A DNA stretch of 64,000 bases from assembly GCF_003790525.1 (NCBI RefSeq), contig NZ_CP033635.1; one strand, written 5' to 3'. A program made the position numbers and the translations under genes. The notes under the pieces are model-generated. The model searched no databases. It saw nothing but the letters and a program-made list of their open reading frames with translations, and was not told the DNA's origin. Origin of the DNA: Escherichia coli. GTDB lineage: Bacteria > Pseudomonadota > Gammaproteobacteria > Enterobacterales > Enterobacteriaceae. Shown piece after piece: positions 17,076 through 17,183 of the stretch (the stretch's first letter is position 1; the number at the start of each line of letters is the position of its first letter).

Positions 17076-17183
17076 ACGGCTGCCGGATGCGGCGTAAACG
17101 CCTTATCCGGCCTACTCGTAGGTCGGATAAGATGCGTTAGCATCGCATCCGACGTTGAAGGATAAGATGCGTTAGCCTCACAT
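17076..17183. repeat. REP (repetitive extragenic palindromic) cluster between convergent hscC and djlC
   Basis: gccggatgcggcgtaaacgccttatccggcctac-type units and a 16-nt direct repeat gataagatgcgttagc. Confidence 0.8.

Follow-up and report, generated by a model that had tools for sequence, protein, structure and literature searches.

REPs are the commonest repeats of Escherichia coli. Units of the y and z2 types (Stern 1984; Bachellier 1999; Ton-Hoang 2012) are imperfect palindromes of 20-40 nt that begin with a 5' GTAG, carry an AA/GC bulge and occur in high copy number outside genes. They are written here GTAG-first, which is the convention of Ton-Hoang 2012 (PMC3333891). Inverted units joined by a linker form BIMEs. 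BIME-1, or RIP, combines y and z1 units with a long L linker and an IHF site; BIME-2 combines alternating y and z2 units with a short linker, typically with the pair repeated several times in tandem, and has no IHF site. Both the copy number of BIMEs and their linkers vary between strains at one locus (Ton-Hoang 2012, PMC3333891). Another described arrangement, the REPIN, is a pair of inverted REPs mobilised by RAYT, and TnpA-REP requires the GTAG as well as the bulge (PMC3333891, PMC8266576).

Functional data are available for some of these elements. REP325, in which y and z2 units alternate over a long array between the tandem genes yjdN and yjdM, terminates transcription in a partially Rho-dependent manner and also stabilises the mRNA upstream of it (Harris 2026 bioRxiv). 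According to the same work, about 60% of REPs are located in gaps between convergent genes, about 30% of convergent gaps contain a REP, and 78 REPs fall inside a catalogue of 306 bidirectional terminators; REPs have no general link to longer half-lives (Harris 2026 bioRxiv).

We analyzed the gap between the convergent genes hscC and djlC in a stretch of 64,000 nucleotides of E. coli DNA (the window), in which the hscC-djlC locus is 100% identical to that of E. coli SMS-3-5 (NC_010498.1). The features of the locus, in window coordinates, are as follows.

15403-17073, plus strand: hscC, encoding the Hsp70-family chaperone HscC; upstream gene of the convergent pair (ORF list, SMS-3-5 RefSeq annotation).

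17074-17081, plus strand: 8-nt gap ACACGGCT, from the hscC stop codon to the first paired base of REP1.

17082-17115, minus strand: REP1, a canonical y-type REP, GTAG-first GTAGGCCGGATAAGGCGTTTACGCCGCATCCGGC; an inverted REP in the hscC mRNA.

17116-17117, no strand: 2-nt linker TC between CTAC and GTAG, head-to-head, i.e., an inverted repeat with 2 nt between its arms.

17118-17153, plus strand: REP2, a 36-nt z2-type REP GTAGGTCGGATAAGATGCGTTAGCATCGCATCCGAC, assigned by identity to K-12 z2 units, covariance model and fold.

17154-17188 (approximate), plus strand: REP3, a decayed and headless tandem copy of the z2 body; direct repeat of REP2.

17184-18635, minus strand: djlC, encoding the J-domain co-chaperone of HscC; downstream gene of the convergent pair (ORF list, RefSeq annotation).

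The hscC frame ends with the codons I-P-stop (TAA at 17071-17073) and the djlC frame with ..MLFS* (TAG at 17186-17184, minus strand), which leaves a spacer of 110 nt (17074-17183) between the two stop codons. Of this spacer, 93% is REP-related sequence, from 17082 to about 17184. An earlier note on this DNA had proposed that a REP cluster fills the gap; the proposal was borne out, and its coordinates were right. The SMS-3-5 RefSeq record carries no annotation of the cluster. Missing REP annotation in RefSeq tables is uninformative, however, because the MG1655 table (NC_000913.3) is devoid of REP and repeat_region features, and this includes the 657-bp REP325 array between yjdN and yjdM.

The assignment of REP1 and REP2 rests on a covariance model for which ten distinct REP units of K-12 were extracted by pattern from unrelated loci, none of them hscC-djlC. 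When the whole 64 kb window was scanned with filters off, the only significant matches were REP1 (58.2 bits, E=1.6e-11) and REP2 (53.6 bits, E=1.9e-10). Both are full-length, and both alignments show the GTAG head (17115-17112, minus strand, in REP1; 17118-17121 in REP2), the two stems and the AA/GC bulge. REP1 is identical at 34 of 34 positions to six K-12 y REPs, located in REP325 and in the phnL-phnK gap. REP2 matches the z2 unit of the K-12 phnL-phnK gap at 33 of 36 positions, and two of the three differences are a compensatory pair in the upper stem, which reads ATGC/GCAT instead of the ACGC/GCGT of K-12 z2 units. The formal alignment to the REP consensus that the earlier note had called for thus found clear similarity, with E values of about 1e-10 or better. 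On either strand, the folding energy of each unit is about -20 to -21 kcal/mol, with z between -4.1 and -6.4 (REP1, -21.3 and -21.1 kcal/mol on the two strands; REP2, -20.1 and -19.7 kcal/mol, z -5.3 and -6.4).

The Stern-type pattern with a variable gap, GATGCGRCGY..RCGYCTTATC, matches REP1 exactly, with 0 matches expected in shuffles. The fixed-loop form of the consensus, GATGCGRCGYNNNNRCGYCTTATC, missed REP1 because the loop of this unit is shorter. By megablast, a query containing REP1 matched a median of 26-27 places per E. coli genome, in agreement with the high copy number of REPs, and both units lie outside genes, between the two stop codons. The sequence variant shared by REP2 and REP3 is, at the sensitivity of megablast, essentially confined to the hscC-djlC locus, with partial matches elsewhere in 2 genomes only. 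With their 5' GTAG, AA/GC bulge, length of 34-36 nt and extragenic position, REP1 and REP2 are bona fide E. coli REPs of the y and z2 types, and both have the two features on which TnpA-REP depends.

REP3 does not share these properties. It has the orientation of REP2 and follows it at a distance of 35 nt downstream, and the two are related by a direct repeat of 25 nt at 92% identity (17125-17149 and 17160-17184) with an exact core of 17 nt, GGATAAGATGCGTTAGC, at 17125 and 17160; this corrects the 16 nt given for the repeat previously. In the covariance search REP3 scored 9.7 bits (E=2.6), i.e., it was not recognized as a REP, and its fold was no better than that of shuffled sequences (-5.4 and -6.7 kcal/mol, z -0.4 and -1.1). 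Its head is GTTG rather than GTAG, its lower stem is gone, and at the 3' end it extends over the stop codon and into the last codon of djlC. A scan of the spacer with Tandem Repeats Finder reported no repeat, as the REP2/REP3 repeat has fewer than two copies and lies under the score threshold. Similarity past the 25-nt core is too weak to say whether a 35-nt duplication might reach into the djlC stop region. REP3 is a decayed copy of REP2 that is recognizable only as a direct repeat. Consequently, of the two or three REP units counted in the earlier note, two are intact and the third fails, and the alternating orientation that it described applies to units 1 and 2, whereas unit 3 is oriented as unit 2.

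The spacer is therefore a REP cluster of the BIME kind, consisting of y and z2 units head-to-head plus a decayed tandem z2 copy: REP1 (minus) and REP2 (plus) are inverted around the TC linker. Its y + z2 composition and short linker, without an IHF site, point to BIME-2. It differs from canonical BIME-2 in having a single pair, an unusually short 2-nt head-to-head linker, and a same-orientation z2 remnant in place of a further alternating pair. The features of BIME-1/RIP were absent, as the linker is 2 nt long and no WATCAANNNNTTR core of an IHF site was found on either strand of 17041-17220. In comparison with REP325, the y unit is identical and the same action as a 3'-UTR terminator and stabiliser is proposed, but REP325 is a long array between tandem genes and the present cluster is one pair between convergent genes. 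A REPIN likewise consists of an inverted, GTAG-tagged pair; here, in contrast, the arms belong to two types, y and z2.

The corresponding region of K-12 has a different structure, defined by the following features.

MG1655 681664-681722: K-12 spacer of 59 nt, orthologous to window positions 17074-17183.

MG1655 681679-681717: REP57, the orthologous hairpin, as given in Harris 2026, Table S16, entry 48.

The SMS-3-5 cluster is a rarer and fuller structural allele of the already catalogued REP57 site, and it is ordinary in kind, its type being known already. The two alleles are identical in the left flank and the 8-nt gap, as well as in the left half and loop of the y REP (window 17074-17101). 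In K-12, the spacer then runs straight into TGCATCCGGCATCGGC, giving a near-perfect 13-bp hairpin, GCCGGATGCGGCG-TAAA-CGCTGCATCCGGC, which has neither GTAG nor AA/GC bulge. This hairpin scored 19.6 bits on both strands with the REP model and folds at -29.8 and -24.8 kcal/mol, stronger than REP1 or REP2.

Homologous spacers were sought in complete E. coli genomes and in other Escherichia species, for which DjlC served as the query and three outgroups were usable. The SMS-like spacer was present in 76 of 5,426 complete E. coli genomes. As these carriers are 99.4-100% identical across the spacer, their conservation says nothing about selection. The K-12-like spacer of 59 nt occurred in 4,296 of the 5,426, which is 98% of the E. 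coli genomes carrying the locus. About 1,053 of the 5,426 had no match to the K-12 query, which comprised the hscC and djlC ends with the spacer; the hscC-djlC junction, perhaps the whole module, thus appears absent or very divergent in about one fifth of E. coli genomes. The DjlC search also returned a 403-nt contig assigned to Caballeronia mineralivorans (Burkholderiales), NZ_AEJF01000292.1, whose DjlC fragment shares 98% identity with the protein of E. coli; this assembly is almost certainly contaminated with E. coli DNA. The spacers of the three outgroups are as follows.

Escherichia sp. E1V33: K-12-like form.

E. whittamii: y unit, 13-nt head-to-head linker ACATACGTTCCGC, and a z2 unit with a tail that continues directly into the stop of djlC.

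Escherichia sp. MOD1-EC7003: y unit, 2-nt linker, 2.9 tandem 35-nt z2 units and (ATCCGGC)6 (Tandem Repeats Finder).

In E. whittamii, the right arm of the z2 unit is replaced by the djlC stop region (..GCATCGCATC joined to TAACTG; contig positions about 4448-4530), a junction that is the same as the end of REP3 in the window. The 35-nt units of MOD1-EC7003 are homologous to REP3; these z2-body units all have one orientation, whereas canonical BIME-2 alternates. Read from the djlC side (contig 4456-4587), the MOD1-EC7003 spacer has a perfect heptanucleotide microsatellite, (CGGATGC)6, directly after the djlC stop, followed by the z2-body units.

The locus thus takes four structural alleles across Escherichia, the fuller BIME forms being found in SMS-like E. 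coli, E. whittamii and MOD1-EC7003, and the collapsed hairpin in most E. coli and in E1V33. Every allele retains at least one strong hairpin 8 nt past the hscC stop. The 8-nt gap itself is the same in K-12 and MOD1-EC7003 and has one substitution in each of the other two Escherichia alleles. In the K-12 hairpin, the left half follows the y-REP consensus throughout, whereas the closest match to the right arm is a z2 right arm, with 15 of 16 positions shared with the last MOD1-EC7003 unit. These matches suggest that the form prevailing in E. coli arose from a BIME by deletion of the palindrome centre, and is not a precursor of the BIME. The direction of change that we infer, from an ancestral BIME to a derived hairpin, is based on short matches and three outgroups, among which E. 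albertii, E. fergusonii and E. marmotae are not represented. With four structures, one of them probably generated by deletion of a palindrome centre, the locus illustrates cleanly how a BIME can collapse and expand in nature.

Over approximately 13500-20500 of the window, the genes of SMS-3-5 and K-12 are 94-97% identical (hscC, 94.7%; djlC, 95.8%; the djlB part, 94.1%; ybeT, 98.7%), and the last 400 nt of the SMS-3-5 hscC are 94.5% identical to E1V33, 93.5% to E. whittamii and 93.0% to K-12. These values hint at old allelic lineages or recombination. An origin of the SMS-3-5 allele in another Escherichia species was considered and rejected, as none of the sampled outgroups matches the flanks more closely than K-12 does. 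REPs are unusually scarce in the clade F strains SMS-3-5 and IAI39, numbering fewer than 310 (PMC3333891). Consistent with this published count, the REP-containing query had 6 megablast places in SMS-3-5, against a median of 26 per genome and at least 40 in K-12.

With regard to function, a role as 3'-UTR hairpins that limit readthrough and exonuclease decay of both convergent transcripts appears most likely. In the mRNAs of hscC (probably rihA-hscC) and djlC, REP1 and REP2 would each fold into a stem-loop of about -20 kcal/mol in the 3'-UTR. As with other REPs, they would most likely attenuate readthrough, partly via Rho, and block 3'-to-5' exonucleases. In this way, the 3' ends of both transcripts could be fixed and antisense transcription into the partner gene limited. 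At the DNA level, the cluster would be a non-autonomous REP element shaped by RAYT/TnpA-REP, by slippage or by both, a history that would explain the four structures seen across Escherichia. The region as a whole is strongly folded (z -5.2 and -4.7 on the two strands), and the predicted minimum-free-energy structure of the plus strand has a single long BIME hairpin in place of two separate REP hairpins, so that either form may occur in vivo.

The REP57 entry bears on this role. Entry 48 of Table S16 places a bidirectional terminator at MG1655 681679-681717 (hscC:rihA:djlC, log phase), overlapping REP57 (Harris 2026 bioRxiv). The earlier note had suggested, with hedges, that the REPs act as mRNA-stabilising structures and mark a transcript boundary. 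In our analysis this functional reading is supported, inasmuch as it matches the literature and the listing of REP57 speaks directly for the boundary, but the K-12 hairpin is a different structural allele. The 306 terminators, reference 47 of Harris 2026, probably come from Ju et al. 2019.

The position of REP1 may also matter for translation. Where a REP follows a stop codon at a distance below 16 nt, it is reported to be able to depress translation of the upstream gene through a stall of the terminating ribosome (Liang 2015, cited through PMC12306157). REP1 starts 8 nt past the hscC stop, within this reported zone of up to 15 nt, and might lower the translation of hscC. On the djlC side, the first strong hairpin is 30 nt from the stop in the SMS allele (REP2) versus 21 nt in K-12, and only the weak REP3 hairpin touches the stop codon. 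Any effect on expression is probably modest, since HscC, DjlB and DjlC fell below detection in E. coli during exponential growth (PMC8215388) and REPs are not generally linked to longer half-lives.

Taken jointly, a BIME-type cluster that is a minority allele of REP57, with the proposed 3'-UTR role and a history of RAYT activity or slippage, is an explanation that we hold with good though not full confidence. The competing view with most in its favour is that the cluster is selfish or neutral debris of REP/REPIN proliferation and slippage, tolerated in a convergent gap and without any role specific to the locus; we regard it as possible but doubtful. The structural instability of the locus (four alleles, one decayed unit, and (ATCCGGC)6 in one species) would be expected of debris, as would the collapsed form in 98% of the locus-carrying E. 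coli and the roughly 1,053 genomes without a K-12 query match. The very weak expression of the flanking genes (PMC8215388) and the lack of a general tie between REPs and longer half-lives (Harris 2026) point the same way. On the other hand, each allele keeps at least one strong hairpin 8 nt past the hscC stop, and the catalogue of bidirectional terminators includes the K-12 hairpin as a working one. Debris is also compatible with the main explanation, since a selfish origin leaves room for an exapted role.

A more far-reaching extension of the 3'-UTR reading, which we rate as improbable, is that the gap is an old hot spot of BIME rearrangement, with structures common to Escherichia species, and that its alleles could differ functionally and tune HscC/DjlC. 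If so, REP57, with its hairpin of -25 to -30 kcal/mol, would stop transcription more tightly in both directions, and the SMS allele, with two weaker hairpins after hscC and its first strong hairpin 30 nt and not 21 nt from the djlC stop, could tune HscC/DjlC without any coding change. In any case, the two E. coli alleles provide a ready-made contrast for effects of REP architecture on termination and decay between convergent genes.

That these GC-rich hairpins between convergent genes constitute a canonical Rho-independent bidirectional terminator, with the hairpin between A- and U-tracts, would also fit the presence of the K-12 orthologue in the bidirectional-terminator list, but we consider it very unlikely. 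A terminator scan found no site in the spacer, and no U-run of five or more follows the hairpins on either the plus strand (UCGUAGG and GUUGAAGG) or the minus strand (CGAGUAGG and CAGCCGUGUUUAAGG). The flanking A/U counts in the K-12 table entry are 0 and 3. Lacking a U-tract, REP1 and REP2 are not canonical intrinsic terminators.

Still less probable is an independent small-RNA gene of the naRNA4/CssrE type arising from the REP cluster. Although naRNA4 (RF02564) is the best Rfam match in the region, its scores of 42.5 and 28.8 bits, the former the highest, stay below the gathering threshold of 59.5, and such sub-threshold matches simply follow from the composition of naRNA4, which consists of REP325 units. 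A search of 16700-17600 gave no promoter-like site, and the nucleoid role proposed for naRNA4 was not reproduced (Harris 2026 bioRxiv). The idea that the palindromes arose by chance and are unrelated to REPs is refuted, to the point of negligible probability, by E values of about 1e-10 to 1e-11, 0 expected shuffle matches, and the 34/34 identity to K-12 REPs.

Elsewhere in the window, the K-12 REP model gave a match of 11.1 bits (E=1.3, not significant) to a weak REP-like hairpin, CCGGATAACGCACTGATGCCACATCCGG, at 10699-10726 on the minus strand. It sits in the gap between a 512-aa ORF (9114-10652) and an ORF starting from 10974, and may be a decayed REP remnant.
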